UHGV virus genome: UHGV-0120097
From: a virus
Length of the DNA stretch: 37,664 nt
Direction: 5' to 3' (one strand)
The notes under the pieces were generated by a model. The model saw only the letters and a program-made list of their open reading frames with translations. It did no database searches and was not told the DNA's origin. Shown here piece after piece: positions 4,309 through 34,684 of the stretch. How positions within the stretch are numbered: position 1 is the first letter of the stretch; every line of letters starts with the position of its first letter. Position numbers and translations under genes: made by a program.

Positions 4309-5004
4309 ATGATATATGGTTATTGCAGAGTATCTACAAAAAAACAAAATATTTTAAGACAGGTGGAAAATATCATAAAGATATATCAAACTGCTAAAGT
4401 ATTTCAAGAATCATATACAGGAACTACAACAGATAGAAAAGAATGGAGTAAGCTAAAAAAAATAGTTAAACCTGGAGATACAATTATATTTGATTCTGTT
4501 AGTAGAATGAGTAGAAATGCAGAAGAGGGAATAAAAGAATATTTTAATTTTGTAGAAAGAGATATTGAACTTATATTTTTAAAAGAGGGATATATTAACA
4601 CAGCCCTTTATAAAAAAGCTTTAGAGAATAAAATAGATTCAACAGGAAATAAAATAGCTGATATATACATAGATGCAACCAATGAAGTATTAAAGATATT
4701 AGCTCAAGAACAAATTAAAATAGCATTTGACCAAGCTGAAAAGGAAGTATTAGACCTTAGAGAAAGAACAAAAGAGGGACTAAGAGTTACCAAAGCTAAA
4801 GGAACTGTATTAGGTAGAAAACAAGGAGATACTTATACTACCAAGAAAGAAAAGGAGATGAGAGAGAAAATAAAAAAACTAGCTAAAGATTTTGGAGGAA
4901 ATCTTAAAGATATAGAAGTCTTTACACTGCTAGGAATAACTAAGAATACATATTACAAGTATAAGAAAAATATTATACTAGAGGAGGCACAAAATGAGAA
5001 ATAA
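4309..5004 (+). CDS. small serine recombinase (resolvase/invertase family)
   Basis: N-terminal MIYGYCRVSTKKQ (the YxRVSTxxQ catalytic Ser motif), DSVSRMSRN, and a C-terminal HTH-like segment. Confidence 0.75.
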   Translation: MIYGYCRVSTKKQNILRQVENIIKIYQTAKVFQESYTGTTTDRKEWSKLKKIVKPGDTIIFDSVSRMSRNAEEGIKEYFNFVERDIELIFLKEGYINTALYKKALENKIDSTGNKIADIYIDATNEVLKILAQEQIKIAFDQAEKEVLDLRERTKEGLRVTKAKGTVLGRKQGDTYTTKKEKEMREKIKKLAKDFGGNLKDIEVFTLLGITKNTYYKYKKNIILEEAQNEK

Positions 5005-5165: not shown

Positions 5166-5669
5166 TTGAAAAAGCACGAAGTGATTAGAGCAGCTATGCT
5201 AGAGCTTGGCTTTCCTTATGATGAGGCAGACCAGGAAACGGCATCAGCTTATAAGACAGGAAATAATTATTATATGATGATGATAAATGATATGTTACAA
5301 AATGAAAATTATGGAATTAATATAGATAAAGTGGTACTAAGAAAAGCTGATGTACAAAATATGCCTGGGAAGATAATTTACTTAAAACCAGATGGGTATA
5401 TAAAATCACTAACAAGTGGTGTAGAGGCTTATAGGGATAAATTAATCAGTTCAAAAAATAATTTTTTATTTAAATACTTGAAAAAGATAGACCCAGAAGA
5501 AATAGAGGAGAAATATACAAGACTTGCTAGTATATCTTTAGCCATTATGATGGCAGCTCCACTTTCTAAAGCTGGAGAATTAAGTAGATTGTATGAACTT
5601 TTCTTAGCAGAGCAAAATAAATTTATACATGACAATCCTCCAATAATTAATATAGAGGATTTAAGATAG
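5166..5669 (+). CDS. hypothetical virion-associated protein
   Basis: TTG at 5166 lies 8 nt after GGAGG. The track gives an alternative ATG at 5151 with no SD. Confidence 0.4.
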   Translation: MKKHEVIRAAMLELGFPYDEADQETASAYKTGNNYYMMMINDMLQNENYGINIDKVVLRKADVQNMPGKIIYLKPDGYIKSLTSGVEAYRDKLISSKNNFLFKYLKKIDPEEIEEKYTRLASISLAIMMAAPLSKAGELSRLYELFLAEQNKFIHDNPPIINIEDLR

Positions 5670-5678
5670 GAGGCAACA

Positions 5679-7475
5679 ATGAAATATTATGAAAAAAAGG
5701 GGAGGTTCTCTTTAGGGGAGATAGACCCACCACTATGTTTTAGGGTAGATACAGATATACCAAACAGAGGATTAGCCTATTTAGAAAATGGACTTATAAC
5801 CTCTTCAGCAGGAATAACTAATTTCCCAGCATTAAAAAAAGTTGCTACTATTCAAGCAGTTACAACTAAAACTATTATAAATGCTTTCAAGATTTTTAAA
5901 TATAAAATTCAAAAGAAAGATACCTCGCTTAGTGGGTATCTTTTTTTATTTAATGAATTAAAAGTAATTATATTAAGAGAAGATAACTTTGAAGTTATAA
6001 AGGAAATAGAAGTAAATTACACAGATGAAGAGATTGAGAATCTAAGTATAGCACAATTCCAAAATAGTGTTATAACTTGTGTAGCTAATAAAAAACCAGA
6101 GATGATAAGAGTTACAGAAGATAGTCAAGAGTTTGATGTAGTAGAGTATTGGGAAAATATAGTAAATCCTCCAGTAAAAAGAGTGGAAACTCAATATCAA
6201 TATACAGATGAAGAAAAACAAGTATTTCAATGGTATCAATCTGGAGCAAGTGTTGTCTTTGAATCTACTATCTCAAGTCCTGTATTTAAACCTACATTCC
6301 TGGACAAATTAAAAGAGGGAACTATTTCCTATATGGCTGGAGAATTTAGAATCAATAAAATAGAGAATAGAGATGGAAAACAAAAGATAACTACTACACA
6401 AGTTACAGCACCAGCAGCTGGAATAGATATTCCTACCTCATCAACTCCAGAAGCTGAAAGAAAAATAAATATCCTTGATATAACTTTCTCTGAATCCCTA
6501 TTCAATGGAGGATATCCAGCAGTAGTGGCAGAGTATAAAGGAAGAGTTATATTTGGGAATGTTGCAGGTAACCCATCAGCGATAGTATCAAGTAGAGTTT
6601 ATGATTCTACTAATTTCAGACAATCAACAGATGATAATGATGGATTTACTACCTTTGTTACTGGTAATGAAGTTAATACTGTTAAAGAGTTTATAGCTTA
6701 TAAATCCTTGATAGTAATAACAGATAGAGGAATTTATTCCACACAATTAAATGAGGGACTAACTACTGAAACATCAGCACTGTACGACCAAAAACTACCA
6801 AGACCTAAAGGGCTTGGGTATTGGACAGAGGCAGACGACGCAATATACTATGTTGACAGTTCCAATAGAATCTATCAAATACAAGACGTAGGGGCAGATA
6901 GTGCTTATGTAGTGCAGGAAGTAACACTATATTCTGGACACTTAATGGATAACATCAATGATATTTACTTTCATAAAATTGGTAAAAACAACATTATAGG
7001 AGTAGATACAGTAAGTGGTGGAAGAGCATTAAGTTATAATTATTCGGAAAATATATTATGTTGGACTAGAGTACCTAAATTGCCTGGAATAAATGAATAT
7101 CTTAATATAGATGATAAACTCTATATCTTCAATGCTAATAATGAAAATATAGATATATACACTTATTCAAGTACAGAGGTAGAACCTTTAAAGTTAAAAC
7201 TACCAAAAACAACTATGTCGCAAAACTACCAAATGCCAATTCCAGAATTTTTAATGAAAGCAAGATTTAAAAATTGTAAGATTTTGTGTTATGGAAATTA
7301 TAACTTAAAAATAAATAACCAAACTAAATCAGTAGGCTTTGGAGAAAATACAGATAATTTTTATGAAAAAATTCACTACATAGACATGGCCAACATTGGA
7401 AAAGAGGAATTAGTTATAGAGCAACTCAATGATGAGAAAATTGAAATAGTAGGAATATTTGCAGAAATAGGATAA
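5679..7475 (+). CDS. putative virion structural protein (tail/nozzle-like), 598 aa
   Basis: Large ORF with SD taggaggcaacaATG. It sits immediately upstream of the 178/703/1633-aa trio; the structural call rests on that synteny only. Confidence 0.45.
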   Translation: MKYYEKKGRFSLGEIDPPLCFRVDTDIPNRGLAYLENGLITSSAGITNFPALKKVATIQAVTTKTIINAFKIFKYKIQKKDTSLSGYLFLFNELKVIILREDNFEVIKEIEVNYTDEEIENLSIAQFQNSVITCVANKKPEMIRVTEDSQEFDVVEYWENIVNPPVKRVETQYQYTDEEKQVFQWYQSGASVVFESTISSPVFKPTFLDKLKEGTISYMAGEFRINKIENRDGKQKITTTQVTAPAAGIDIPTSSTPEAERKINILDITFSESLFNGGYPAVVAEYKGRVIFGNVAGNPSAIVSSRVYDSTNFRQSTDDNDGFTTFVTGNEVNTVKEFIAYKSLIVITDRGIYSTQLNEGLTTETSALYDQKLPRPKGLGYWTEADDAIYYVDSSNRIYQIQDVGADSAYVVQEVTLYSGHLMDNINDIYFHKIGKNNIIGVDTVSGGRALSYNYSENILCWTRVPKLPGINEYLNIDDKLYIFNANNENIDIYTYSSTEVEPLKLKLPKTTMSQNYQMPIPEFLMKARFKNCKILCYGNYNLKINNQTKSVGFGENTDNFYEKIHYIDMANIGKEELVIEQLNDEKIEIVGIFAEIG

Positions 7476-16998: not shown

Positions 16999-17018
16999 GA
17001 AAAGAGGTGTTTAAGCAA

Positions 17019-18386
17019 ATGTTAAATTTTAAAAAAGAGTATTTTAAGTTAGAAGAGAATAGACAACAGTATGCTACTAGCTTTTCAGACTTAATGACAA
17101 GTTGTGAAGTTTACGGAAAAAAACAAAATCCTATAACTAGCACAGCTTTTATATTCCTTATACCTAAAGATTATTACACATACAATGCTGGAAACATTGA
17201 TTTTACTAACTACCCAGATGGTATATGGAATGATTACACAGATATTAAGATAGTTAAGTCTGAACCTTATTTTGATTTAGATTTTACTTTTAGTAGTACA
17301 GGAGATATTACACCAGAAAATCTAAATAATATGTTTACTAAAATAAAAGCTGCAATACTTGGAACAGAAAAAGAAATTATAAAATCTCAATTATTTGTAG
17401 ATAGTGGAATACCCAAACAATTAGGTTTACCAGATTTACCAAAAGGTTCTATCTGGTATATGTCAGATGATGGGATAGCTACTTATCCTGTAACTACACT
17501 ATTTGAGAAATATCAAGAGTTGCTCAATAAGATTTATGAAGATACAAAAAAAATATTACTTGAAGATTTGGATAATAGAGTAAAAGAGCTAGTTATTCAA
17601 TTAGAAAAAGATTTAAAAGAAATTATTGATAATTATCTTAAAACAGATAGTTATTTAAAATTAGATAAATATACACAAGAAAAAATAGAAGAAGCAGAAA
17701 AAGAAATCCAAGATTATATAGACTATCATATGCAAGATTTAAAAGGAGAAAGAGGATACTCAATAGCAAGTGTTGGTTTTAATAAAGAATTACCAGAAGG
17801 AAACATCTATACAGTCTACCGTGAAGACGGAGAAATTATAGGAGAATTATTAGCACGAAGAGGTCCTCAAGGTATTCAAGGCAATGATGGACCAGAAGGA
17901 CCGAAAGGAGAGAGAGGAGAAAGAGGATTCAAAGGAGATAAAGGAGACCAAGGAGAAAGAGGGGAAAATGGACCTCAAGGTATTCAAGGAGAGCAAGGAA
18001 TACAAGGAGAAGTTGGACCTCAAGGTCCTCAAGGAATAACAGGTCCTCAAGGTATTCAAGGAATACAAGGGGAACAAGGCATTCAAGGAGAAAGAGGACT
18101 TCAAGGACTAAAAGGCGAACAAGGCATTCAAGGAATACAAGGAGAACAAGGACCTAAGGGAGAGCAGGGAGATATCGGACCTCAAGGTCCTCAAGGAATA
18201 CAAGGTCCTAAAGGAGATAAGGGAGATAAAGGAGATAATGGAACTGCTGTAATCACTCCTATAAATAGTCAGTACATATTCCAAATAGAAGATGGAAACT
18301 TAGTTGTATATTATAACGAGAATGATACTCAACCAAATTTTTCAATAGATGAAGATGGAAATTTAGTATTAGAAATTTTAGAATAA
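17019..18386 (+). CDS. collagen-like repeat tail fibre protein
   Basis: About 50 uninterrupted Gly-X-Y triplets ([13 protein letters not shown]...) between an N-terminal domain and a C-terminal beta-rich domain. ATG at 17019 after aaagaggtg. Confidence 0.65.
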
Positions 18387-18399
18387 GGAGGTTTTAATT

Positions 18400-19512
18400 A
18401 TGCCGAAATTAATTATAGGTAATGTTGTAGGTCCTCAAGGTCCTAAAGGAGAACAAGGAGATATCGGACCTCAAGGTCCTAAAGGAGAACAAGGAATACA
18501 AGGGGAACAAGGTATTCAAGGTTTACCTGGTGCAAAAGGAGAACAAGGAATACAAGGTCCTCAAGGTCCTAAGGGAGATACTGGAGAGCAAGGTATTCAA
18601 GGTCCTAAAGGAGATAAGGGAGATACTGGACCACAAGGTCCTCGAGGTCCTCAAGGTATTCAAGGACCTAAGGGAGATAAAGGGGAACAAGGTATAACTG
18701 GAAATACTGGTCCTAAAGGTCCTAAAGGAGATACTGGAGAGCAGGGTATTCAAGGTCCTAAAGGAGCTGATGGAGTAGGAGTAAAAAGTATAACATTTAA
18801 GAATACTAATGAAGATGGCGGAAATGTTTATACTGTGACTTTAACTAATGGTAGCACATATGATTTTACTGCCCCTAGAGGTCAACAAGGGATACCAGGA
18901 CAAAGCGGTCAACCTGGGACTACCGATTATGAAAAATTAATAAACAAACCAGATGTATATACTAAAACTGAAACTAATAATTTATTAGATGGTAAATTAG
19001 GTAAAGAAGATAAAGCAAAGAGTGCTACAACTGCTGATAGTGCTGGTGCTTGTACAGGGAACTCTGCTACTGCTACAAAATTACAAACTGCTAGAACTAT
19101 CAACGGAGTTAGTTATGATGGTAGTGCCAATATTACAATAGCTGATAATACAAAACTTCCAAAATCCGGTGGTACTATTAATGGAAACTTAACAGTAACA
19201 GGAGCTATTGTTTCAAACGGAGAAGTTACGGCTTATTCAGATAGAAGATTAAAAACTGATATAACAAAGATAACTAATGCTCTTAAAAAAGTAAATCAAA
19301 TCAATGGGTACACATTCACTATGTTAGGTACAGGACAAAGACAAGCTGGAGTTATAGCTCAAGAGATTGAAAAAGTATTGCCAGAAGTTGTGGTCAAAAA
19401 TGAGGACAATGGTTATTTAACTGTTATGTATGGACATATAGTAGCTTTACTTATTGAAGCTGTAAAAGAAATGAGTAAGGAAATAGAAGATTTAAAAGGG
19501 GGTAGGGTATAA
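18400..19512 (+). CDS. collagen-like tail fibre with C-terminal intramolecular chaperone (peptidase S74) domain
   Basis: GXY repeats; a tail-fibre repeat [25 protein letters not shown]; a C-terminal [11 protein letters not shown]...[20 protein letters not shown]...[20 protein letters not shown] typical of the self-cleaving S74 chaperone. Confidence 0.8.
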
Positions 19513-19916
19513 TGGCTATCACTATGAAAAATTTAAATGATAGAACATCAGCATTAGAGGGTAAAGCTTCAACTACTCCAATAACTATGAAAGGATTAGC
19601 TGATAGATTAGCAAATTTAGAAGCTACTGCTAAGAAATGGGAAGAGGCAACTCTTACTATCGGAACTGGTACAAATGTATATAACACTGTTAGTTTGCCA
19701 CTTCCACAAAATATAAAAAATATAGTTTCTGGAGCTAAAAGTTTAGCGACGGCCTCAGGAACAGTTCGTTGGTACACTAATGTTCGAGATGACACTGTAT
19801 CAGCTAATAGTGGCAGTATCAGAATAGATAATAATTATTTATACTATCAATTACGTCAAGGCTCTCGTAGCATAGCGAGTGGGGACATCACAATTAAATT
19901 GGTAGTATATAAATAA
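19512..19916 (+). CDS. small fibre-associated protein, paralog A (134 aa)
   Basis: Shares the N-terminal module (ALEGKA.TTPITMKGLADRLA..EATAK.W) with the 20729 gene, and the C-terminus diverges. Strong SD. Confidence 0.5.
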   Translation: MAITMKNLNDRTSALEGKASTTPITMKGLADRLANLEATAKKWEEATLTIGTGTNVYNTVSLPLPQNIKNIVSGAKSLATASGTVRWYTNVRDDTVSANSGSIRIDNNYLYYQLRQGSRSIASGDITIKLVVYK

Positions 19917-20678: not shown

Positions 20679-20728
20679 TATTTAATCCTCTAAATAAAAA
20701 AATACAAAATAGAGCTAGTGTCATCACA

Positions 20729-21124
20729 ATGAGTAATCTAAATACTAGGATTGCTACATTAGAGGGCAAAGCTGCAACTACTCCAATAACTATGAAAGGA
20801 TTAGCTGATAGATTAGCTCAGGTGGAAGCTACTGCTAAAGATTGGGCTGTAGTTACACTAACAGGCACACAAACATCCCGATGGGCTATCCCTACGCAAT
20901 ATTTAAATGGATATAATTTTTATGTTGTTGGTTGGAGCGGGTTAAAAATGGGATCTTATTATGAACAAGAATATAGTAATAATAGAATAAACCATTATGT
21001 TACGAACGATGGGAGATATCGTTTTATCTATAAATTTGAAAGAAATGGTAATTATATACTATCTGTTAAAGAACAAAGTTCAAATCCTGTAATTGATAAT
21101 ATTACAGTAATGTTTTATAAATAA
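20729..21124 (+). CDS. small fibre-associated protein, paralog B (131 aa); no SD
   Basis: N-terminal module shared with the 19512 gene, with 43 nt identical. There is no recognisable RBS upstream of the ATG. Confidence 0.45.
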   Translation: MSNLNTRIATLEGKAATTPITMKGLADRLAQVEATAKDWAVVTLTGTQTSRWAIPTQYLNGYNFYVVGWSGLKMGSYYEQEYSNNRINHYVTNDGRYRFIYKFERNGNYILSVKEQSSNPVIDNITVMFYK

Positions 21125-22646: not shown

Positions 22647-23311
22647 TAGCTCAACCCCTTTATCTTTTCTTTTAGTTCAGCCTTAACAGTTTTCAACTCT
22701 TTCAACTCTTCCTCTAATTTTCTGATTTTCGCCTCTACCTCCGATAGTCTGGATACCAGCTTATCTTTTTCAGATTCCTCTACTATCTCGGCATCTTCTA
22801 TTTCGAGCATGCTCGAAATAGCTTTCCTTATTTCTTTATCTGTTCTTATTCCAGAAGATAAAATATTCTCAAGTATTCTTACATTAACCTTTTTATTCAC
22901 TAAAGCTTTTACTTCTCTGTCTGAAAAATCTGAAATTAAATTGTTGTATTGTGGATAGCTTAAAGATAACTTATATCTCCCTCTAAGTAGTGATACTTGG
23001 TCTTTATTAAATCCTAAAGCTTGGTACCACTCCATATATGAACTTGGATTTTCAGAGTATCTATCAAATAGTTTTCTTGCCTCTTCCAAGTTTTGACCTA
23101 TTTGTAGTGCTAAAGAAGAGATATTTTCTTTTTTAGTGATAATACTTTTCTCAAATATAATTAATTGATTTTTATCATCATCTGAAAAATTTTCCAATTT
23201 GTTATAATCATATTTCAATATATCTTCTATATCATTTTTTTCTGGAATAATTACTTCTGTATTTTCTTTCTTTTTTAAAATTATAGGTTTTCTATTTATT
23301 TTTATTGCCAT
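22646..23311 (-). CDS. putative partition protein (ParB/centromere-binding partner of ParA)
   Basis: Lies immediately downstream of ParA and overlaps it by 10 nt. Charged coiled-coil C-terminus. No clear ParB box seen. Confidence 0.4.
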   Translation of the reverse strand: MAIKINRKPIILKKKENTEVIIPEKNDIEDILKYDYNKLENFSDDDKNQLIIFEKSIITKKENISSLALQIGQNLEEARKLFDRYSENPSSYMEWYQALGFNKDQVSLLRGRYKLSLSYPQYNNLISDFSDREVKALVNKKVNVRILENILSSGIRTDKEIRKAISSMLEIEDAEIVEESEKDKLVSRLSEVEAKIRKLEEELKELKTVKAELKEKIKGLS

Positions 23312-24060
23312 TTATTTAACAACTCCTTTGTAAGAGCTTTAAAATCCTTAGCCCCATTTGATGTAGAACTATATTCTATTATAAAATGTCCTGTCTGTGA
23401 GGCTTTAAATATTTTAAGATTATCTCTTATAGGAGTATCTAATATGTTATCAAAAGAATTTCTGACATCTTCAGTGGCTTCTAATATCTCTTTGTCATTT
23501 TGTAGCCTATTGATATAACCAAAATGAATGAATGGAGTGTTTAAATCCTTTTTAAGAGCTTGTATAAAGTTCTCTAATAATTCAAATCCTCTAAAACTAA
23601 ATAGATGAGCTTCAACAGGAGTGATAACATAATTACTGCACTTTAACACAGCCCTTTCTATTGCTCTCATATCTGGTCTACAATCTATAATTATATAGTC
23701 ATATTCTTGAAGTTGCTCTAGTCCCTTTTTTAAATCTAGGTAAATCATTTCCATATCAACACTGTCTTTTTTATATTCCAAGTCCTTTAAATTAAGACTT
23801 GCAGGTATTAAATCTAATATATGTTTTCCATCTCTTTCAATAGGAATTATATTTCCTTTTAAATCTTTCTCTTTTATAGCTCTAAAGATATTTTTTTCTT
23901 GGTCTGCTTCTATTAAACTTTCAGTTAGATTTTGTTGAAAGTCACAATCAATAAGCAAAACTTTTTTATTATGAACTAGAGATAGTACCCCAGCAACTTC
24001 TCTGGCACCAGTAGTCTTACCAGTGCCACCTTTTTCTGTTATGAATGATATTATTTTCAT
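23302..24060 (-). CDS. parA: ParA/Soj-family partition ATPase
   Basis: Deviant Walker A KGGTGKTT at the N-terminus (MKIISFITEKGGTGKTT). SD ataggggggtaaaATG. Confidence 0.8.
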   Translation of the reverse strand: MKIISFITEKGGTGKTTGAREVAGVLSLVHNKKVLLIDCDFQQNLTESLIEADQEKNIFRAIKEKDLKGNIIPIERDGKHILDLIPASLNLKDLEYKKDSVDMEMIYLDLKKGLEQLQEYDYIIIDCRPDMRAIERAVLKCSNYVITPVEAHLFSFRGFELLENFIQALKKDLNTPFIHFGYINRLQNDKEILEATEDVRNSFDNILDTPIRDNLKIFKASQTGHFIIEYSSTSNGAKDFKALTKELLNKWQ

Positions 24061-24069
24061 TTTACCCCC

Positions 24070-25194
24070 CTATATTAAATCCTTATATTTTTTTATATAC
24101 TCTCTTACTTCCTCTGGTTCATAACCAAAATCCTCTCCAGTAGCTTGATATATTTTCATAGCATTTTGATATTCTTCATTAGTTAGTGGAGTTGTTTTTT
24201 TCTTGACTACTGGCTCTTCAACTTCTTTTATTTTTTCTGCTTCCTTAGTTCTTCTTATAACTATTTTTCTTTTAGGTTTATTGATATTGTCCTCTATGAC
24301 TTTTACTAGGTAATTAAGACTTGTAAATTCTGTTTTAATTAAATCATAAGCAGCTTTCAATCCTTTTTCTAATTGTTCTTGGCTAAATTTATCTAAAAGT
24401 TTTATTATATTATCATCAGTCAAGAAAGGTTTTACAAATCTATTTTTCTCTGCTTTCTCAATAGCTGATAATAGCTCTTCTGAAATCTCTATTTCCTCTT
24501 CCTCTTCTATTGTTTCATCAACCTTGTTATCTTTCCAAGTAAACTCAAACCCACTTATAAATTTACCATCTTTTATTTTTTTTACTTTCAAACCTTCAAA
24601 ATATTGTGGTAACTCTTTCATAATAGGAGGCAATACTCTTTTGTTTATAACTGCTGTATCATAGCTTTCTGGAACTCCTAATTCTCTTCTGAAATCTTCA
24701 AGAGTTATAGTTACTTTTTTTATTTTATTCCACTTTTTCAAAATAGAATACATTAGTTGTGAATATCCAGATTTTAAATTAGAATATTCTATCAAAGCTT
24801 GAATTGTATAAGGAGCTTGTAAATGATTTAGCAAATATTTATAGTCTGGATTTATTCTTATTCTAACTGTTTTCTCTTTCTCATCTACTGAAAAGGTTGG
24901 AAACAAGACCATATTTGTAAATCCTTCATCTTTTCTTATTTGCATAACTTGTAATCTTAAAAGCTTATCACTTAATTCTTTTAAAAAGCTATAAATATTA
25001 TCTCCTTTTTTTCTTGCAGAATAATTTGCAATTTTTGAAATCTCTGAAACTTTAAAAGTTACAACTTCATCTTCCTGTTCCATAATCTTTAAACAAAGAG
25101 CTAAAAAAACTGCTCTTTCTTTTACTGAATAATTTTGTAATTGGAGATTATGGAAATCTTTATGATGTATTAGATTATATTTTTCTTGACTCAT
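24070..25194 (-). CDS. rep: Rep_3-family plasmid replication initiator
   Basis: Segments TIQALIEYSNLKSGYSQLMYSILKKW and ITLEDFRRELGVPESYDTAVINKRVLPPIMKEL match the Rep_3 initiator signature. An iteron array lies immediately upstream. Confidence 0.7.
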   Translation of the reverse strand: MSQEKYNLIHHKDFHNLQLQNYSVKERAVFLALCLKIMEQEDEVVTFKVSEISKIANYSARKKGDNIYSFLKELSDKLLRLQVMQIRKDEGFTNMVLFPTFSVDEKEKTVRIRINPDYKYLLNHLQAPYTIQALIEYSNLKSGYSQLMYSILKKWNKIKKVTITLEDFRRELGVPESYDTAVINKRVLPPIMKELPQYFEGLKVKKIKDGKFISGFEFTWKDNKVDETIEEEEEIEISEELLSAIEKAEKNRFVKPFLTDDNIIKLLDKFSQEQLEKGLKAAYDLIKTEFTSLNYLVKVIEDNINKPKRKIVIRRTKEAEKIKEVEEPVVKKKTTPLTNEEYQNAMKIYQATGEDFGYEPEEVREYIKKYKDLI

Positions 25195-25260
25195 ATATTC
25201 CCTCCAAAAATTTCACTAATTTTAGTATAACTTAATCAAAGGTACAATGTCAATATATAT

Positions 25261-25530
25261 GTACCTTTATTTTCTGGATTTTGTACCTTTATCTTTTTAA
25301 AATACTCTTTAAATCCTATTTACACTAGGTTTTTAACTATTATATAAATTTATAATAAAGGTACATCATTCTAATAAATGTCGTTAAAAGCACATTATAA
25401 AATATTTCGTACCTTTATAATTGGATTTTGTACCTCTATAATTGGATTTTGTACCTTTGAAAGTTGGATTTTGTACCTTTGTTTTCTGGATTTTGTACCT
25501 TTGAAAGTTGGATTTTGTACCTTTATCTTT
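25261..25530. repeat. iteron array (GGATTTTGTACCT, about 22-bp period, at least 5 tandem copies plus 2 more)
   Basis: Tandem copies start at 25423, 25443, 25465, 25487 and 25509. Additional copies lie at 25276 and partials near 25261 and 25408. Confidence 0.75.
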
Positions 25531-25844
25531 TTATAAAATGGCTTTTTTTCTAGCTTTTAAAGGTGCCGAAATATATAAAAGAATAAAAGAATAAAGATTC
25601 TTCTTAAAGGAGTGAGAAAGAATATATTTTTAAAATAAAAATAACTGACAAAACTTCACACTATAAAAACCAATAAAAATAAATACTCAAAAATTACTTT
25701 GACAAAATTTCACAGTATTATAATTTCTAAAAATATATTGACTTATATCAAAAAGTATATTATCCTCCTGTATCCAAATTTTTAACCCCATATAAGATGC
25801 TTTTTTTTAACATCATATGTTATTCGAGATTCTTTAATAAAAGT

Positions 25845-25873
25845 GGCAGGAATAAACCTGCCATTTTTATTTT
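25845..25873. terminator. bidirectional hairpin terminator
   Basis: GGCAGG-aataaa-CCTGCC followed by ATTTTTATTTT on the plus strand. Read in the minus direction the hairpin is followed by CUUUUAUU, directly downstream of the stop of the 25872 gene. Confidence 0.5.
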
Positions 25874-26495
25874 ATGCAGTTTTTAAACTTCTTAAAGTTG
25901 CTTTTAAATAGTTCAATTCTTTTTTACTTGCTGTGTAGATATTAAATTCAAATCTACCATTTTCCTTAACTAAGTATATAGCCTTGTCTATATCCTCTTT
26001 AGAGTATTTTTTATTTATAACTTCTATAAATTTAGCCCTCTCTTCTGGTGTAATTTGCTCTTCAACTTCCTTAACCTCTTTATCTTCTTTGGATTCCTTA
26101 TACTTTTCCAAATCCTCTCCAGTGTATAATGATAGTCCTATACCAAACATTGCTATATTTTTTACAAGACATCTCATTATACTGTCATTTATATCTCTAC
26201 TGTTAGGTTTGCTTATAGAATTATGTCTATTGTCCATGATAGGTAACATCATTTTTTTAGTTACTCCAAACATAGTAACAGTAGTTTTTACAAAGTGACA
26301 ATCCCCTCTTGAGAATAAAGGAAACCCCTCTAAATCTTCTAATATTTCATAACTCATTGATGGGTCTTGCTCCATAGCCATTTTGTAAGCATTAGCCCAG
26401 CTTATGTATGATAGTTTTCTTTTTCCTGTGTCTACTGTTTCTATCATACCTGTTAAATCTTTTAAATACATTTCTTGAAATTTTTCTTTAGTCAT
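25872..26495 (-). CDS. putative single-strand annealing protein (Sak/Rad52-like, DUF1071-type)
   Basis: KLSYISWANAYKMAMEQDPSMSYEI resembles the conserved core of the Sak-like SSAP family, and it sits next to a Gp157-like gene. The family call is from memory only. Confidence 0.4.
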   Translation of the reverse strand: MTKEKFQEMYLKDLTGMIETVDTGKRKLSYISWANAYKMAMEQDPSMSYEILEDLEGFPLFSRGDCHFVKTTVTMFGVTKKMMLPIMDNRHNSISKPNSRDINDSIMRCLVKNIAMFGIGLSLYTGEDLEKYKESKEDKEVKEVEEQITPEERAKFIEVINKKYSKEDIDKAIYLVKENGRFEFNIYTASKKELNYLKATLRSLKTA

Positions 26496-26513
26496 AAGAC
26501 CACCTCCATTTAA

Positions 26514-26557
26514 TTTTTAACAAGTCCCCCAAGTTCCTTGGGGAACCTATAAAAACT
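26514..26557 (-). repeat. 44-bp conserved element, copy A (7-3-7 palindrome CCCCAAG-TTC-CTTGGGG)
   Basis: Identical to copy C. Sits directly upstream of the RBS of the 26495 gene. Confidence 0.7.
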
Positions 26558-26560
26558 AAA

Positions 26561-27082
26561 TTATTTTATATATAAACTTGTACTTTGTTTAAGTTCTGCT
26601 CCTGGAACTTCTACCCCAGCCTTTAAAGCTTTTGAAATTTCAGTTTTTGAAATATCTTCAACATATTTTATTGTCTTAAATTCTGCAGGTATTTTGTCTT
26701 TGTCTATAAGCTCTACACTTGCAGGATTATTTTTTATTCCTATTATTCCAAAGATAGTATCTATTTTTTTTACTCCTATTCTTTCAAGAGTATATTTTAA
26801 AAAGTTTTTAAAATTTTTATCTTTATTCTCTAAAGATTTTTTTCTAGCTTCAAGCCTTTTTATTTCCTTGTCCAGCACTTCTATTTGTGCTTTATTATTT
26901 TGAAATACCTGTATAATTCTACCTGTTTTGCTGCTCAAATCTTGCTCTATTTCTTTTGTTAAAGCCTCTAAAGCTTCACACTCTTTTATCTCTCCTGTAT
27001 TCTCATCAATGGAATTTTCCCAAAGTTCATTTAATACTAATTTGTCCTCTAATAAATTCATTATATTTGCCATTAAAACCAC
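26561..27082 (-). CDS. siphovirus Gp157-like protein
   Basis: Coiled-coil centre; C-terminal ...KTEISKALKAGVEVPGAELKQSTSLYIK is typical of Gp157-family proteins found beside phage recombinases. Confidence 0.5.
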   Translation of the reverse strand: MVLMANIMNLLEDKLVLNELWENSIDENTGEIKECEALEALTKEIEQDLSSKTGRIIQVFQNNKAQIEVLDKEIKRLEARKKSLENKDKNFKNFLKYTLERIGVKKIDTIFGIIGIKNNPASVELIDKDKIPAEFKTIKYVEDISKTEISKALKAGVEVPGAELKQSTSLYIK

Positions 27083-27210
27083 TCCTCAATATTTAAAAGT
27101 TCTAAAAATTCTCTAAGCTCTTTTTCTGTCATATCTGCTGCAGCTTCTCTAACTTCTTCTAGTTCCTCATCAAAGTAATTATCAAGTCTTTCTAATCTAA
27201 CATAAGTCAT
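27073..27210 (-). CDS. small hypothetical protein (45 aa; start re-assigned)
   Basis: ATG at 27210 with SD ggaggtgg (MTYVRLERL...). The longer track ORF (to 27321) would read through repeat element B. Confidence 0.35.
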   Translation of the reverse strand: MTYVRLERLDNYFDEELEEVREAAADMTEKELREFLELLNIEEWF

Positions 27211-27230
27211 AAAGACCACCTCCAATTTAA

Positions 27231-27274
27231 TTTTTAATAAGTACCCCAAGGCTCTTGGGGAACCTATAAAAACT
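27231..27274 (-). repeat. 44-bp conserved element, copy B (CCCCAAG-GCT-CTTGGGG)
   Basis: Stem conserved and loop changed. Homology extends through the RBS and the first codons of the downstream gene (about 80 bp shared with copy A). Confidence 0.7.
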
Positions 27275-27277
27275 AAA

Positions 27278-27523
27278 TTATTTATCAAAAACATTTTCAA
27301 GCATTTTGAAAAAGTCATCAATTTCTTTTTCTACTTTTTCATCTGCTACCCTAAAGCTATTAAAATCTAATTTTTTCTCATAACTTACTGGTTTTTCTCC
27401 TACATATCCAGCAACTATGTTTTTTTTAAGTTCTCCACTAAAGAAAACTATATTGTTTTTTATCTCCCAAGCTAAATTTTTAATACTGTATTTTTCTTTT
27501 AAATTCTCCATTACTGCTAACAT
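27278..27523 (-). CDS. hypothetical protein
   Basis: 81-aa ORF with SD. Confidence 0.45.
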   Translation of the reverse strand: MLAVMENLKEKYSIKNLAWEIKNNIVFFSGELKKNIVAGYVGEKPVSYEKKLDFNSFRVADEKVEKEIDDFFKMLENVFDK

Positions 27524-27590
27524 TCTAATTCCCCCTACATTTTGCTATATTTAATTTTGAATTTTAATATATGTTTTATCCAAGCTATCA

Positions 27591-27866
27591 TTAATATCTA
27601 ACCCCTTGGACTGCCCAGTAAGCTGCTTCTCTGTCTTGCTCTTCTCTTTTTTTATCTTGGAAAGCTTCTTCAACTTCTTTTTCCCATTCTTCTAAAAACT
27701 CCATCATACTATCCATATCTACCTGGAACTTAACTTCTTTTTTACCAAGTCCAGAAAATACCATAAAATCTCCTGTCTTTGAGTTATAATTGTAAGAATC
27801 AATTAGTCCATCATCTTGTAATTGTTGCATTGTTTCAAATCCTTCTAATAATTCTTTATCTAACAT
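27591..27866 (-). CDS. hypothetical protein
   Basis: 91-aa acidic ORF. Confidence 0.45.
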   Translation of the reverse strand: MLDKELLEGFETMQQLQDDGLIDSYNYNSKTGDFMVFSGLGKKEVKFQVDMDSMMEFLEEWEKEVEEAFQDKKREEQDREAAYWAVQGVRY

Positions 27867-27869
27867 AGT

Positions 27870-28046
27870 TTTCCCTCCTCTTGACTATTAAGTGCTAAAT
27901 TTGCTATTGCTTCAGATACTGTTAAACCATATCCATGAAACTCTCCAGCATTTACTATATAAAATTTTTTAAATCTTCTTACTGTAAGAACTCCCCATTT
28001 CTCATTGATATATTTTAAGAACATCACATCTTGTGACATATTGCCA
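27870..28046 (-). CDS. small hypothetical protein (58 aa; below the track cutoff)
   Basis: ATG at 28046 after aaaggggggtggcaat, reading MSQDVMFLKYINEKWGVLTV.... Its stop overlaps the start of the 27866 gene. Confidence 0.3.
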
Positions 28047-28057
28047 CCCCCCTTTAA

Positions 28058-28101
28058 GTTTTTAACAAGTCCCCCAAGTTCCTTGGGGAACCTATAAAAA
28101 C
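28058..28101 (-). repeat. 44-bp conserved element, copy C
   Basis: Upstream of the RBS of the 28046 micro-ORF. Confidence 0.7.
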
Positions 28102-28105
28102 TTAA

Positions 28106-28447
28106 CTATGCTATCGCTTGTAGGTTGCTTCCTTGTACTCTTTGCCAACCATATTTTTGTTTTAACTCTTCATAATCTCCCTTGAATGTTCCTTTTCCTT
28201 TTTTCTCTCCAAAGTACCATTTTTTTCTTTTAGCACTCCATCTAAAACCAAGTTCTTTTAACTGTTCCTTGTATAAGAAAGTATTACCAGATACCCATAT
28301 CCAAGAGCCTACAACATCAATCTCTAAACCATGGAAATGTATTATTTTCTTTAGTATCTCCATAACCTCTGGAGCTATCTCTTCCCCTGCTTCCCTTGCT
28401 TGTTGTTTAAATCCCTCAAGTTGTATTCTTTCATACTCTGCCATCAT
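28106..28447 (-). CDS. hypothetical protein
   Basis: 113-aa ORF. Confidence 0.45.
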   Translation of the reverse strand: MMAEYERIQLEGFKQQAREAGEEIAPEVMEILKKIIHFHGLEIDVVGSWIWVSGNTFLYKEQLKELGFRWSAKRKKWYFGEKKGKGTFKGDYEELKQKYGWQRVQGSNLQAIA

Positions 28448-28607
28448 CTCTTTGAAGTCCTCTTCGTTTCCACCATGGTCTGGGTGTAATCTCTTACATA
28501 ATTCTCTATATTGTTTTTTAAATCCTCGTTACTGTTAAAGTATTTATACATATTACCAACTCCTTATATTTTCTACTTGCTTTTATGTTTTTTGTGGTTT
28601 ATAATGC

Positions 28608-28668
28608 AAGTAAATAACTTGTATATTTGACTATATAATACAAGTAATTTACTTGCTTGTCAAGTAAA
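28608..28668. promoter_or_regulatory. operator cluster of the lysogeny switch (half-site CAAGTAA/TTACTTG)
   Basis: CAAGTAAATAACTTG at 28608-28622 and CAAGTAATTTACTTG at 28641-28655, plus a half-site TGTCAAGTAAA overlapping the -35 of the CI promoter. Confidence 0.5.
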
Positions 28669-28685
28669 AATTTTTATTTTATAAT
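28657..28685 (+). promoter_or_regulatory. CI promoter (TTGTCA-17-TATAAT)
   Basis: TTGTCA at 28657-28662, a 17-nt spacer, TATAAT at 28680-28685. Confidence 0.5.
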
Positions 28686-28734
28686 AAAATTACAAGTTAA
28701 TTAGTTGCAAAACTAGAAAGGACAAGGTTTTTAT

Positions 28735-29391
28735 ATGGAAAAAAAGACAGGAGAAACTTTAAAAAATATTAGAAAAAAATATAACATTACAGGAGAAAAG
28801 ATGGCAGAAATTTTAGGGTGTAGCACTCAATTTATTTATGCAATAGAAAAAAATAAAAATAAATTTCCTGTAAAAAAATTAGAATTGATAAAAAATATTG
28901 TATCTGAAATCGATTATTTCGATTTAATAGAAGCAATAAAATTTGATACTGAACCTGCAAGCCTTAAAAACGAAGTTTTAAAAATCCAAAGTATAGAAGA
29001 GATAAAACAAAAGAAGATACCTTTTTATCCAGATATTGAAGCTTCAGCAGGGTATGGAAGATTTAATGATAGTGAAATTGTAGAGTTCTTAGAAGTTCCA
29101 GAAGATTTAGCAAGACCAGGAAATATAGCTATAAGAGTTGCTGGAGATTCTATGGAACCAGAGATTAAAGACGGAGATACTATTGTAATAGATACAAATT
29201 GTATAGAATGTATTTTAAATAAAATAATAGTTGTTAATTATCAAGGGGCAGTATATTTAAAAAAATATGTTGAAGAAAATGGAAAAATATTTTTAAAAAG
29301 TATAAATCCATATTACCCTAAAATTAGAATAGGAAACAGAGAAGAACTTAGAGTTATTGGGAAGTTAAAAAGTGTTATGAGGTATTATTAG
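28735..29391 (+). CDS. CI-like repressor (XRE HTH + S24 LexA-like peptidase domain)
   Basis: N-terminal LKNIRKKYNITGEKMAEILGCSTQFIYAIE HTH. C-terminal AGDSMEP (Ser nucleophile) with a downstream Lys. Transcribed divergently from the early operon. Confidence 0.85.
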   Translation: MEKKTGETLKNIRKKYNITGEKMAEILGCSTQFIYAIEKNKNKFPVKKLELIKNIVSEIDYFDLIEAIKFDTEPASLKNEVLKIQSIEEIKQKKIPFYPDIEASAGYGRFNDSEIVEFLEVPEDLARPGNIAIRVAGDSMEPEIKDGDTIVIDTNCIECILNKIIVVNYQGAVYLKKYVEENGKIFLKSINPYYPKIRIGNREELRVIGKLKSVMRYY

Positions 29392-30003: not shown

Positions 30004-30022
30004 AAATGTAAAATACTTACCA

Positions 30023-30050
30023 AGAGGAGAAATTTTTTCTCCTCTTTTTT
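30023..30050 (+). terminator. rho-independent terminator
   Basis: AGAGGAGA-aatttt-TCTCCTCT followed by TTTTTT. Confidence 0.7.
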
Positions 30051-30640: not shown

Positions 30641-30844
30641 GAGGGTATAAAAGTAAGAAAAAATCTTCTGAAACTAGCATAAATTCTATGTTTTTAAAAA
30701 AATTTTTTGACATAAAATTATATATAATGCTCCCGTTTATATTAGAGAGAGCAGCATATAAAAAAATAAAATATACCTGATTTTCTTAGAGATAGTTTTA
30801 AAACTTAAAGCTATCTTTTAGAAAATTAAAAGGGGGTGGGTTAG

Positions 30845-31933
30845 ATTGTAGATACCGCAAGTATAAATTATTCAGTTAGACAAACTGACTTTGATTTTAT
30901 AATCGGGTCAGCTAATCTATTACTGAAAGAAGAGGCACAAGCAGAAAATAAAAGAATATTATATAAAAATATCCAGCTAAAAAAATTTAGCTGGTTAAAC
31001 TTTATAGGAGTAGAGGAGAAAAGAAACTCTATAACTATAACAATATCTTTTAGTTATTCCAGATATGATAACAATGACAATTACAAGCTAGCAAAAAATA
31101 AAAAAGTTATTGCTCAAGTACATCAAGAATTAATCTTAATACTTAGAAGCATAACAGGGGAACTTGTAAGAGAAGAGGATATAGTTATAACAAGTCTAGA
31201 CCTCTCAAACCAATTAGAAGTTGAGAACATTAGAAATTATTATCAAGTTTTAAATTTGATATACAGAGCCTATAAAAATATCTTTCCAACCTCAAGAATG
31301 TATTTTGATACAGACAACAAAAAAAGATTGGAACTTGACGGAGTAGACTTTAGAGAAAAAGGTAAAAGACCAAGAGATAGCAAGGCTTACTTTAAAATCT
31401 ATTCCAAAAGAAAAGAGATGGAAGATACGGGAAAAGAGGGAGTAAAGAAAAGACAAGCATTAAGAGGAGAGTTGACACTAAGACCTCCGCACCTCAAGAC
31501 CTACAACTTAAATCATCTGGGTGGAATAACTAAAGATAATCTAGCTGCAGCACTTAGAAAAACAATAGGAGCAATACTTACAGAGCAGATAGTCAAAGAG
31601 TTAAACTATGACATCACGGAATTAAAAAAGATAGTTGCTCCAGGAACTAAGGGGCTAGCAGAAAGACTTATGATGAAAGAGTATTTAATATTTGATATTA
31701 GATTACTTGATGTTGTAATGACTGAAAATAATATGAGTATTAAAAAAAGAGCTATTCAATACCAGAAAAAGAAAGTTATTGAAAAGCTGGAAGAGCTAGA
31801 AAAACTTGGAGAGATTAAAAAGTCTTATTCCAAGAACTTTGAAAGATTGGAAAAACTACTCAAAAAAATAGCTAAAGTTAGTATAAAAATAAGACTAGGA
31901 GAAGAGGGGGCAGAGTTAGAATGGCAGGAATAA
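30845..31933 (+). CDS. hypothetical protein (about 363 aa) with no canonical start codon; probable ATT initiation
   Basis: Frame 2 is open for 137 codons upstream of the first TTG (31256), starting right after the strong SD aaaagggggtggg at 30828-30840. The only triplet at the correct spacing is ATT at 30845. The 3' end overlaps TerS. Confidence 0.45.
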   Translation: MVDTASINYSVRQTDFDFIIGSANLLLKEEAQAENKRILYKNIQLKKFSWLNFIGVEEKRNSITITISFSYSRYDNNDNYKLAKNKKVIAQVHQELILILRSITGELVREEDIVITSLDLSNQLEVENIRNYYQVLNLIYRAYKNIFPTSRMYFDTDNKKRLELDGVDFREKGKRPRDSKAYFKIYSKRKEMEDTGKEGVKKRQALRGELTLRPPHLKTYNLNHLGGITKDNLAAALRKTIGAILTEQIVKELNYDITELKKIVAPGTKGLAERLMMKEYLIFDIRLLDVVMTENNMSIKKRAIQYQKKKVIEKLEELEKLGEIKKSYSKNFERLEKLLKKIAKVSIKIRLGEEGAELEWQE

Positions 31934-33175: not shown

Positions 33176-33766
33176 ATGGAAGATAGAATTAAAAATCTAT
33201 TTCGTAGTAGATTCCAGGAGGCACAACAGGAAAGAAATGTAATACTAGCTTGGTATTTGAAAGCTAGAGCACATTTTCTACCAAGAGAAATTAATTTAAA
33301 TGGTGTAGACAGTACAGGACTAGCATATGCTACTAAGTTAGCTAACAAGTTATCAGCTATGATACTTAATAGTAATCATATCTGGGCTTGGATAGAAACA
33401 CCAAGGTTTGAAGATATATCAAGAGATGACAAGATTATCTTTAGACGCATAACAGAAATAGTATTTGATGAGATTCAAGAAAATTCTAACTTTGAAACAG
33501 AGAAAGCTGTAATTCTTATGGACTACCTAATAGGAACGGCAGTTTTTAAAGTTAGATTTACTGGTAAAATTGCAAATCCCGTGGAATTTCAACCAGTACC
33601 CAATATAAATGTTTATCTTACTAAAAGAAGAGGTAAAGAACCTGGAGATGTATTCTACAATGCAGGCAAAGTGAGAAAACATCAGATTCTTAATCTTTTT
33701 GGAGAAAAGGCTTATAACTCTGAAAAAGTTCAAAGAATGTCGCAAGATGACGAGATAGAGTTGTGA
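33176..33766 (+). CDS. portal protein, N-terminal part (ends at an in-frame TGA)
   Basis: Strong SD. The position (TerS ... portal-scaffold-MCP) and the combined size (about 502 codons) fit a portal. A TGA at 33764-33766 interrupts the frame. Confidence 0.5.
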   Translation: MEDRIKNLFRSRFQEAQQERNVILAWYLKARAHFLPREINLNGVDSTGLAYATKLANKLSAMILNSNHIWAWIETPRFEDISRDDKIIFRRITEIVFDEIQENSNFETEKAVILMDYLIGTAVFKVRFTGKIANPVEFQPVPNINVYLTKRRGKEPGDVFYNAGKVRKHQILNLFGEKAYNSEKVQRMSQDDEIEL

Positions 33767-33796: not shown

Positions 33797-34684
33797 ATGT
33801 TTCATTATGTAGTTTCTACTTCGAATGAGTTCACAGACGTTTTAGATCACAGGATAGACACTTACAATCCGTGGATAGTTGCAAGATATGAAAGTATTGG
33901 AGATAGTCCATATGGTATAGGACCTTGTGTTAAAGCGATAATGGAGATTGAGGGGCTAAAAGAAGTTAAAGCTAACATCAGACGTATTGCTAAGAAACAG
34001 GCTAGACCAAGCTATTTAGGTTATGGGCAAGCTAAATATATTCAGAACTCAAGAATAGATGAGCCAGGAGCTATATCTTTAATGGGACAATCACCAGGGC
34101 AAAATCAGATAATACCATTCAACAGGGGAGAGAATGCTAACATGGAGTTCTTTAACCTGGATATGTACAAGGAACTTTTAAGAGATATATTCTATATCAA
34201 CCTAATTGAGAGTGTTCAGAACATAGACCAATTAAAGAATGTTACTGCAACAACAACTCAAGCAATAGTAACAGAGTTCTCAAGACAAATAGAGCCAACA
34301 TATGCACTAATGCAAAGGGAACTATTAAGAGAGATAGTTATAAAAGTTTTTCAATGCTTACAAAAGATTAGCATTATAGATATATCTAAAATTAAAGCTT
34401 TACAGGAAAACCCAAGATTAAAGATAAGATTCTACAATGCCTTGACTATTGCTCAAGACCAAGACGACCTCGAAAGAAATATGTTGTATTTCCAAAATAT
34501 AGCAAGCACTCTGGGACCTCAAGTTGCAGCAGCTAATATGAACCAAGCAGAATACATAAACGCTCAACAAAAAAGGTTTAGAATCAATAACAAAGAATGG
34601 AAATCTGGAGAGGAAACAGAAAAGCAAGTTGAGGAAATGAACGCTATGATAGCTGCACAACAAGGGGGAATGATAGAGCAATGA
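33797..34684 (+). CDS. portal protein, C-terminal part (same frame as 33176..33766)
   Basis: Frame 2 is continuous from 33767 through 34684. There is no SD before ATG 33797. Confidence 0.5.
   Translation: MFHYVVSTSNEFTDVLDHRIDTYNPWIVARYESIGDSPYGIGPCVKAIMEIEGLKEVKANIRRIAKKQARPSYLGYGQAKYIQNSRIDEPGAISLMGQSPGQNQIIPFNRGENANMEFFNLDMYKELLRDIFYINLIESVQNIDQLKNVTATTTQAIVTEFSRQIEPTYALMQRELLREIVIKVFQCLQKISIIDISKIKALQENPRLKIRFYNALTIAQDQDDLERNMLYFQNIASTLGPQVAAANMNQAEYINAQQKRFRINNKEWKSGEETEKQVEEMNAMIAAQQGGMIEQ

Follow-up and report, generated by a model that had tools for sequence, protein, structure and literature searches.

Element, operon and genome

An element that is predicted to fold into a long RNA hairpin was found three times in a leftward (minus-strand) early operon of the virus genome UHGV-0120097, a phage genome of 37.7 kb and 29% G+C; the whole stretch of 37,664 nucleotides is referred to below as the window. 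The operon opens with a J-domain gene, which is followed by hairpin C, by genes for proteins of 59, 91 and 81 residues and by hairpin B. Beyond hairpin B lie a 45-residue gene, a Gam-like/Gp157 gene, hairpin A, the gene of a Sak-type single-strand annealing protein and a terminator. Protein searches gave no function for the small genes between the hairpins. Coordinates of the three hairpins, of the Shine-Dalgarno sequences (SDs) that follow them and of the associated signals are collected in Table 1.

Table 1. Position and strand of the hairpins and of related features in the window.
Feature	Position	Strand	Description
Hairpin C	28054-28107	minus	24-bp helix; core 28072-28088; between J-domain gene and 59-residue gene
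Hairpin B	27226-27279	minus	23-bp helix, loop AGC; core 27244-27260; between 81-residue and 45-residue genes
Hairpin A	26509-26562	minus	24-25-bp helix; core 26527-26543; between Gam-like and Sak-like annealing-protein genes
SD-like GGGGGGTGG and ATG (28039-28037) of 59-residue gene	28037-28052	minus	directly 3' of hairpin C; read from sequence
SD GGAGG (27223-27219) and ATG (27210-27208) of 45-residue gene	27208-27223	minus	3' of hairpin B
SD GGAGG (26507-26503) and ATG (26495-26493) of Sak-like gene	26493-26507	minus	3' of hairpin A
Fourth, diverged hairpin	30775-30829	plus	22-bp helix, same architecture; 27.8 bits with covariance model R2 (weak)
Early promoter, sigma-70-like	28635-28663	minus	TTGACA-17-TATTAT, 11/12 consensus positions; overlaps putative CI operators
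Divergent promoter	28657-28685	plus	faces operon promoter
CI-like repressor gene	28735-29391	plus	helix-turn-helix and peptidase S24 domains
Putative palindromic operators, 18 bp	28605-28622, 28639-28656, 28691-28708		ACAAGT-N6-ACTTGT (TRCAAGT..ACTTGY); overlap divergent promoters between repressor and early operon
Terminator-like hairpin with U-run	25844-25863	minus	after Sak gene; -17.1 kcal/mol, z-score -5.5

Repeat copies

The first-pass annotation, made from the letters of the window, had placed three copies of a 44-bp element at 26514, 27231 and 28058. The first two positions were recovered, and the third was corrected by one nucleotide to 28059. Its statement that copies A and C are identical holds: the exact 44-mer TTTTTAACAAGTCCCCCAAGTTCCTTGGGGAACCTATAAAAACT is present at 26514-26557 and at 28059-28102, with 0 matches expected from dinucleotide-preserving shuffles. 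Copy B (27231-27274) differs from the 44-mer at 5 of 44 positions, which are the 3-nt loop and two flanking bases, and, as had been reported, keeps the stem CCCCAAG/CTTGGGG around its changed loop. The core CCCCAAG-N3-CTTGGGG is thereby present in all three copies, against 0.02 occurrences expected in the window. Likewise as described, copies A and B are alike over about 80 nt, a stretch that starts at the stop codon upstream and takes in the SD and the ATGACT of the next gene. The term 7-3-7 palindrome is correct for the core and understates the structure, since the core is only the apical third of a helix of about 24 bp.

Covariance models built from the element scored copy A at 78.9 bits, copy B at 81.2 bits and copy C at 79.2 bits (R1) or 74.9 bits (R2). 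When model R2 was run on the window with filters off, the three copies and one weak fourth match on the plus strand were returned.

RNA helix and strand specificity

The minus-strand (transcribed) RNA of each copy was predicted to form a near-perfect helix of 23-25 bp that is A/U-rich, contains G·U wobbles and is interrupted by one bulged U about 11 bp from its base. Folding energies were -30.5 kcal/mol for copy A (z-score -5.4), -28.2 kcal/mol for copy B (z-score -4.4) and -28.7 kcal/mol for copy C (z-score -5.1). The opposite strand reached only -16 to -20 kcal/mol, because the G·U pairs turn into A·C mismatches there. The SD is not sequestered in the predicted fold of the copies. An alternative fold that hides the start codon was seen for one copy type only (L040:884) and was rejected as a general feature.

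The same strand preference runs through the family described below. In 33 of 33 distinct copies the sense strand was the more stable one (mean -21.3 kcal/mol, vs -13.2 kcal/mol for the other strand), and helix length stayed at 20-26 bp in every one of them, though the inner stem is swapped for unrelated sequence.

Family collection and covariation

Further copies were collected by pattern scans, by protein-guided look-ups and with covariance model R1. The element was recovered in about 12 IMG/VR contigs, in several Logan contigs and in about 23 metagenome contigs; the metagenome scan had returned 120 DNA stretches, of which those 23 or so were genuine and most were chance matches (for example coding sequence for GxGFIGS). 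Viral scans anchored on two inner-stem types added chance matches only. When 185,579 species-representative bacterial genomes were scanned for the inner-stem pattern, the matches were again due to chance only, in unrelated taxa and mostly in G+C-rich metagenome-assembled genomes. Rfam 15 had no match overlapping the three copies at E-values up to 10.

The final set of 33 distinct sequences, drawn from about 30 viral and metagenomic contigs, was aligned with MAFFT (alignment A3) under a structure of 24 pairs. Standard pairs filled 96.5% of the paired cells, compared with 86% in shuffled alignments and 33-64% when the pairing partners were slid. Both sides change in 12 of the 24 pairs, and compensatory cells numbered 80 against 21±4 in shuffles; RNAalifold, run independently, predicted the same helix with 12 compensatory pairs. 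The proposal that the stem is under selection is borne out by these counts, and the motif, whose absence from related phages would have spoken against a function, is present there in 33 distinct copies with its structure conserved through compensatory change.

Much of the variation falls in the inner stem, which is exchanged wholesale between lineages with pairing kept. The versions found were CCCCAAG/CTTGGGG, TTCCAAT/ATTGGAG, CTATGATT/AATCATAG, CTGCGATTAA/TTAATCGTGG, TCCTGA/TCAGGA and GGTTGACT/GGTCGACC. At the base of the helix, pair 8-57 occurs as G-C, G·U, A-U and U-A, and pair 9-56 as U-A and C-G. For most sequences the search anchor fixed alignment columns 11-20 and 45-55, and part of the invariance of these columns is a product of it. 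Among the pairs free of this constraint, 11 of 13 show compensatory change, and five copies found by the model alone retain the central motif and its G·U wobble.

Non-Watson-Crick cells comprised 91 G·U and about 10 A·C. Taken with the orientation of the genes, this asymmetry places the selected structure on the sense strand, either as mRNA or, less plausibly, as single-stranded DNA of that strand. G·U pairing on the sense strand indicates an RNA structure, not a DNA operator.

Placement between stop codon and Shine-Dalgarno sequence

All 41 copies lie in sense orientation between two open reading frames (ORFs). In about 35 of the 41, the end of the upstream stop codon falls at -1 to +3 nt relative to the first paired base; in the window, the TAA stops before hairpins A and B end at -1, and the TAG stop before hairpin C ends 1 nt ahead of the helix. 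An SD of the GGAGG or GGGGG type begins 1-6 nt past the last paired base and the start codon follows at +14 to +20, so the earlier placement of the repeats, directly 5' of ribosome-binding sites in the early operon of the minus strand, stands.

Two kinds of exception were seen. In the metagenome contig L111, the copies at 2362-2480 and 5172-5290 keep contact with the stop codon and are then followed by complete extended -10 promoters (TTGACT-17-TGgTATTAT and TTGACA-17-TGgTATCAT) and only then by an SD, a composite of hairpin and promoter that is PeSL-like. In L077 no SD follows the hairpin, and the association with the stop codon is retained. The L111 copies imply that the element is tied more tightly to the end of the upstream cistron than to the downstream SD.

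Other repeated palindromes were noted at the corresponding junctions of more distant phages whose first gene is a homologous J-domain gene (L041:625-1462 and L042:655-1474 / L043:733-834). In L041 these are stems of the CTTCCGGAAG type, with a TAATAGGACA box; in L042 the palindrome is ATGTTYCACGTGRAACAT, once followed by a TTGACA-17-TGgTATACT promoter. The L041 and L042 palindromes suggest that hairpins at junctions are a general habit of these early operons, the long-helix family being a lineage-specific version.

Coincidence with mosaic junctions

Homology between the operon and related contigs breaks at 16 points, 10 of which fall within the elements and their SD/start segments, or about 8% of the operon. 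Contig L004 is 98.8% identical to the window up to 27212 and unrelated beyond, the two sequences parting inside hairpin B. Downstream of hairpin B, a gene for a YqaJ-type exonuclease replaces the 45-residue, Gam-like and Sak-like genes in L002, L004 and L006. A different gene stands upstream of hairpin C in L001, L002 and L006, and an additional 66-codon gene follows hairpin C in L001-L003. L005 and L040 carry an additional cassette with hairpins at both ends, and in L007 a variant hairpin and a small gene are inserted at that place. The genes that follow hairpins in the family serve recombination or replication (YqaJ, DnaD-like, Gam-like, Sak).

Loop and stem variants are shared between the copies of one genome and are absent from the orthologous copies elsewhere, a likeness that suggests exchange between copies. 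Two Logan contigs from independent assemblies, L038 and L039, end (3' ends) inside the element at model position 35, as is expected where an assembly graph branches at a repeat.

A fourth, diverged hairpin

The weak plus-strand match (Table 1) is also strand-specific, at -24.4 kcal/mol on the plus strand vs -12.0 kcal/mol on the minus strand. Behind it come AAAAGGGGGTGG and an ORF at 30845-31933. Relatives with flanks of about 79% identity have unchanged stems and differ in the loop alone. Searches of Rfam with this hairpin gave sub-threshold miRNA-like matches only, on both strands.

The hairpin is part of a leader, with a conserved TATAAT 5' of it and a strong SD 3' of it, and the stop codon of a 30-codon ORF is at its base. 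For 137 codons the ORF at 30845-31933 lacks an in-frame ATG, GTG or TTG; ATT 30845 may be its start.

Operon signals and genome context

The sigma-70-like promoter at the head of the operon would drive the transcript that carries the hairpins, and the three 18-bp palindromes that accompany it are probable CI/Cro operators. The terminator-like hairpin after the Sak gene is the probable end of the same transcript. The J-domain gene (28551-28106, minus strand), first of the early operon, encodes an HPDHGGN motif. It is frameshifted in the window at 28514-28519, where six T are found in place of the seven in all eight related contigs, the result of either a homopolymer sequencing error or decay to a pseudogene.

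Beyond the end of the operon, five 22-bp direct repeats (TGGATTTTGTACCTTTG...) at 25253-25529 lie upstream of genes for a Rep3-family initiator (24070-25194, minus strand) and a ParA-like ATPase (23302-24060, minus strand). No integrase was found among the ORFs scanned in the window. The genome looks like that of a phage-plasmid with an iteron origin, and a small serine recombinase with a resolvase N-terminal domain (4309-5004, plus strand) may serve it for multimer resolution or as an invertase.

The five best plasmid matches of the Rep protein were all from Fusobacteriota (Cetobacterium somerae, Fusobacterium varium and strain ZRK30), which makes a host in that phylum likely. Two Fusobacteriota plasmids with related Rep genes were considered as relatives of the phage and rejected as ordinary plasmids. 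Among GenBank phages none resembles the genome: blastn searches with the region, with the isolated element and with the structural genes gave trivial matches or none, and tblastn of a large ORF of the structural region (5679-7475) gave no match.

Several further features of the window were recorded. The portal (PF12236, head-to-tail connector) is split between ORFs 33176-33766 and 33797-34684 (plus strand), which correspond to the N- and C-terminal halves of the profile; in the related contig L038 it is a single gene for 503 residues, and the split may be a further frameshift or an assembly error. Long arrays with a 9-nt period (GGN-NNN-NNN) at 17862-18775 (plus strand) encode collagen-like Gly-X-Y tracts within ORFs 17007-18386 and 18400-19512, presumably tail-fibre proteins. 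A direct repeat of 124 nt with 82% identity (19518-19641 and 20723-20846) extends across two adjacent plus-strand genes.

Proposed role as an intercistronic RNA signal

The interpretation starts from the observed helix, its strand specificity, its compensatory conservation, its fixed placement and its coincidence with mosaic junctions. The element is somewhat more probably than otherwise an intercistronic signal for processing, stability or insulation that also serves as a patch for recombination, with RNase III as the most likely effector. An RNA processing or stability hairpin had been one of the candidates of the first-pass annotation and is now the best supported of them, through strand-specific G·U pairing and compensatory change.

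The element would be a cis-acting part of an early polycistronic mRNA transcribed leftward from the promoter at about 28635-28663. Its helix would start at the stop codon of the upstream cistron and end 1-6 nt before the next SD. The leading candidate for its action is a cut by host RNase III near the central bulge, after which a protective 3' stem of 13 bp would stay on the upstream cistron, and the downstream one would begin with a short A-rich leader ahead of its SD. Without any cut, the helix would still block exonucleases at cistron boundaries in both directions and shield each SD from pairing with foreign upstream sequence, two effects that would fit units that are freely exchanged. As a second role or a by-product, the conserved 54-80 bp would offer patches of homology for the insertion, deletion and replacement of early-gene cassettes.

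The RNase III step taken by itself is a tentative proposal that falls short of being probable. The idealised substrate of the enzyme is a helix of 22 bp, and where the target site is bulged, cutting of one strand is favoured, with 3' hairpins left behind that stabilise the RNA (PMC3867540). RNase III is expressed in F. nucleatum, together with RNases J and R and PNPase (PMC11039985).

Several points weigh against this reading. The argument for RNase III is one of geometry and analogy, and the likely host is deduced from the Rep3 matches. The middle of the helix (UAUAGGU / ACUUAUUA) is conserved in sequence and contains an invariant G·U pair, which could point to a sequence-specific binding protein, although the search pattern imposed part of this conservation. 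The family members share ancestry and their cells are not independent, so the covariation counts overstate the number of independent events. At equivalent junctions the distant relatives L041 and L042 have shorter palindromes of 8-12 bp, from which it follows that a helix of at least 20 bp is not universally required.

An extended form of this reading, possible but doubtful, takes the whole stop-hairpin-SD unit as a standardised linker, at once an insulator at the RNA level and the preferred DNA substrate of the annealing recombinases of the phage (Sak/Gam or YqaJ-type) in cassette exchange. Small early genes, possibly for counter-defence, would then be shuffled as frame-safe, expression-ready units, a functional analogue of integron cassettes that is homology-driven.

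Alternative explanations

Translational control is the strongest of the competing explanations, and an improbable one. The hairpin would be an operator for an RNA-binding protein, of the phage or of the host, that controls the adjacent SD. In another version it would be a coupling switch: a ribosome that has reached the stop codon at the helix base would open the outer 11 bp there, and the A-rich strand beside the next SD would become free. Translational control would account for the stop codon at the base and the SD 1-6 nt past the helix in most of the 41 copies, for a conserved helix centre that includes the bulged U and a G·U wobble in 33 of 33 sequences, and for the position of the fourth copy in a leader directly before an SD; the ESAS repeats of cluster K mycobacteriophages, which are laid out in the same way, are suspected of a translational role (PMC3203893). 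However, the SD is free in the predicted fold, and no RNA-binding protein was identified in the operon. The L111 copies are parted from their SD by a promoter and the L077 copy lacks one, and both keep their association with the stop codon.

It is unlikely that the element is a weak intrinsic terminator or attenuator that grades transcription along the operon, as has been proposed for the PeSL stem-loops of T4-type phages, which terminate efficiently (PMC2839356). The element does come after stop codons, the L111 copies directly precede strong extended -10 promoters, and copy B, with 5 T in the 8 bases after its inner stem, passes a lax terminator scan. It only just does so, and no copy has a proper U-tract, in agreement with the earlier statement that these are not classical terminators. 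The putative U-tract, ACUU(G/A)UUAAAAA, is broken up by other bases and takes part in the pairing of the extended helix, and what follows the full helix is A-rich (tail GACUUGUUAAAAA). True terminators of the window (25844-25863 and 30022-30046) have clean U-runs, and the essential Gam-like and Sak-like genes lie downstream without a promoter of their own.

A DNA-level entity, with the RNA structure incidental, was given the same low standing. The element would be a selfish miniature repeat or an attC-like recombination site that folds in single-stranded DNA. Much of the mosaic pattern suits such an entity: breakpoints cluster at elements, hairpin-bounded cassettes come and go as wholes (L005, L040), one recombination module stands in for another at hairpin B (Gam/Sak vs YqaJ), copies within a genome evolve in concert, L038 and L039 stop within the element, and the phage encodes its own annealing protein. 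Against it, 41 of 41 copies are sense-oriented and placed with nucleotide precision relative to stop codon and SD, and the wobble asymmetry suits RNA better than DNA. The ORFs scanned include no tyrosine recombinase, only the small serine resolvase, and the arm ends do not fit R'/R'' boxes (RYYYAAC / GTTRRRY). The element is in none of the species-representative bacterial genomes, unlike a miniature inverted-repeat transposable element or a dispersed host repeat.

It is very improbable that the palindrome is a DNA operator bound by CI, Cro or another early protein that regulates as a dimer, a role for which the dyad-symmetric 7-3-7 core and the ACAAGT of one flank, a CI-operator half-site, had been offered. 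The inner palindrome covaries and is swapped for unrelated sequences with pairing kept, the imperfections of the helix are strand-asymmetric G·U pairs, and the sites lie within the operon, far from any promoter. The link to CI through ACAAGT also fails: the operators at 28605-28708 have two half-sites, and the hairpin has a single one that is lost in copy B and absent from 23 of 33 family members. ACAAGT occurs 36 times in the window, and the half-site position varies between G and A across the family, as a U·G or U-A pair.

Significance

If the hairpins are processing or insulation signals, a temperate phage would with their help free each small early gene from its neighbours in stability and translation, which would explain how cassettes are exchanged freely without broken expression. 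The family adds a structured RNA motif with unusually clear compensatory evidence from phage-plasmids of the Fusobacteriota type, a group with almost no molecular data, and it may bear on the unexplained ESAS-type repeats of other phages. In practice the element marks the cassette boundaries of early operons and gives a reason why assemblies of these phages break.

Comparison with known systems

Intergenic hairpins that are co-transcribed and alter the stability of neighbouring cistrons are also known from host chromosomes as REP/BIME and as the Correia/NEMIS elements, which are cut by RNase III; these are dispersed in hundreds of copies and in both orientations. The element described here differs in being limited to one phage group, one strand and one type of position.

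The RNase III signals of T7 and SP82 likewise recur as related hairpins, each about two helical turns long and with a defect in the helix, between cistrons of an early polycistronic transcript. T7 early mRNA has five such signals, where cleavage of a single strand leaves behind 3' hairpins that stabilise the RNA (PMC3867540); according to work cited in PMC4838370, the Bacillus enzyme (Bs-RNase III) cuts the early mRNA of SP82. The present element shares with them the intercistronic site in an early transcript, and has a helix of 20-26 bp with a conserved defect about 11 bp from its base. It has no sequence relationship to either, and cleavage of its helix is a prediction. Its helix is nearly perfect, with one bulge instead of a large internal loop, and, unlike those signals, it abuts stop codon and SD with nucleotide precision.

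The PeSLs (promoter-early stem-loops) of T4-type phages are repeats that extend from the upstream stop codon, via a stem-loop with G·T pairs, to the SD and start codon, and they lie among small early genes at junctions of insertion, deletion and replacement between related phages (PMC2839356, PMC4122927). The window copies differ from them in having a much longer helix, no terminator tail and no sigma-70 promoter. A search of the three copies for promoters gave no match at 9/12 or more of the consensus positions, and a manual check of both strands, including the inner stem as a 17-nt spacer, was negative. Promoters follow only the hairpins at L111:2362 and L111:5172. Having neither promoter nor terminator tail, the element is not a member of the PeSL family.

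Similar in appearance are the ESAS/SAS repeats of cluster K mycobacteriophages. These inverted repeats are imperfect, have a spacer that varies and lie directly 5' of the SD and start codon, in one orientation, at a subset of non-structural genes; their function is still unknown (PMC3203893, PMC12699233). They belong to another host phylum and have another sequence. The 13-bp SAS consensus GGGATAGGAGCCC is missing here, the hairpins being followed by GGAGG or GGGGG SDs, and strand-specific RNA pairing with compensatory change is documented for the present element. The resemblance is one of form only, not of homology.

It is well supported that the element is a new sequence family of structured RNA, of a kind of phage feature that is already known. 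By analogy, it would work most like the T7 and SP82 signals, while it evolves like the PeSLs and looks like the ESAS repeats.

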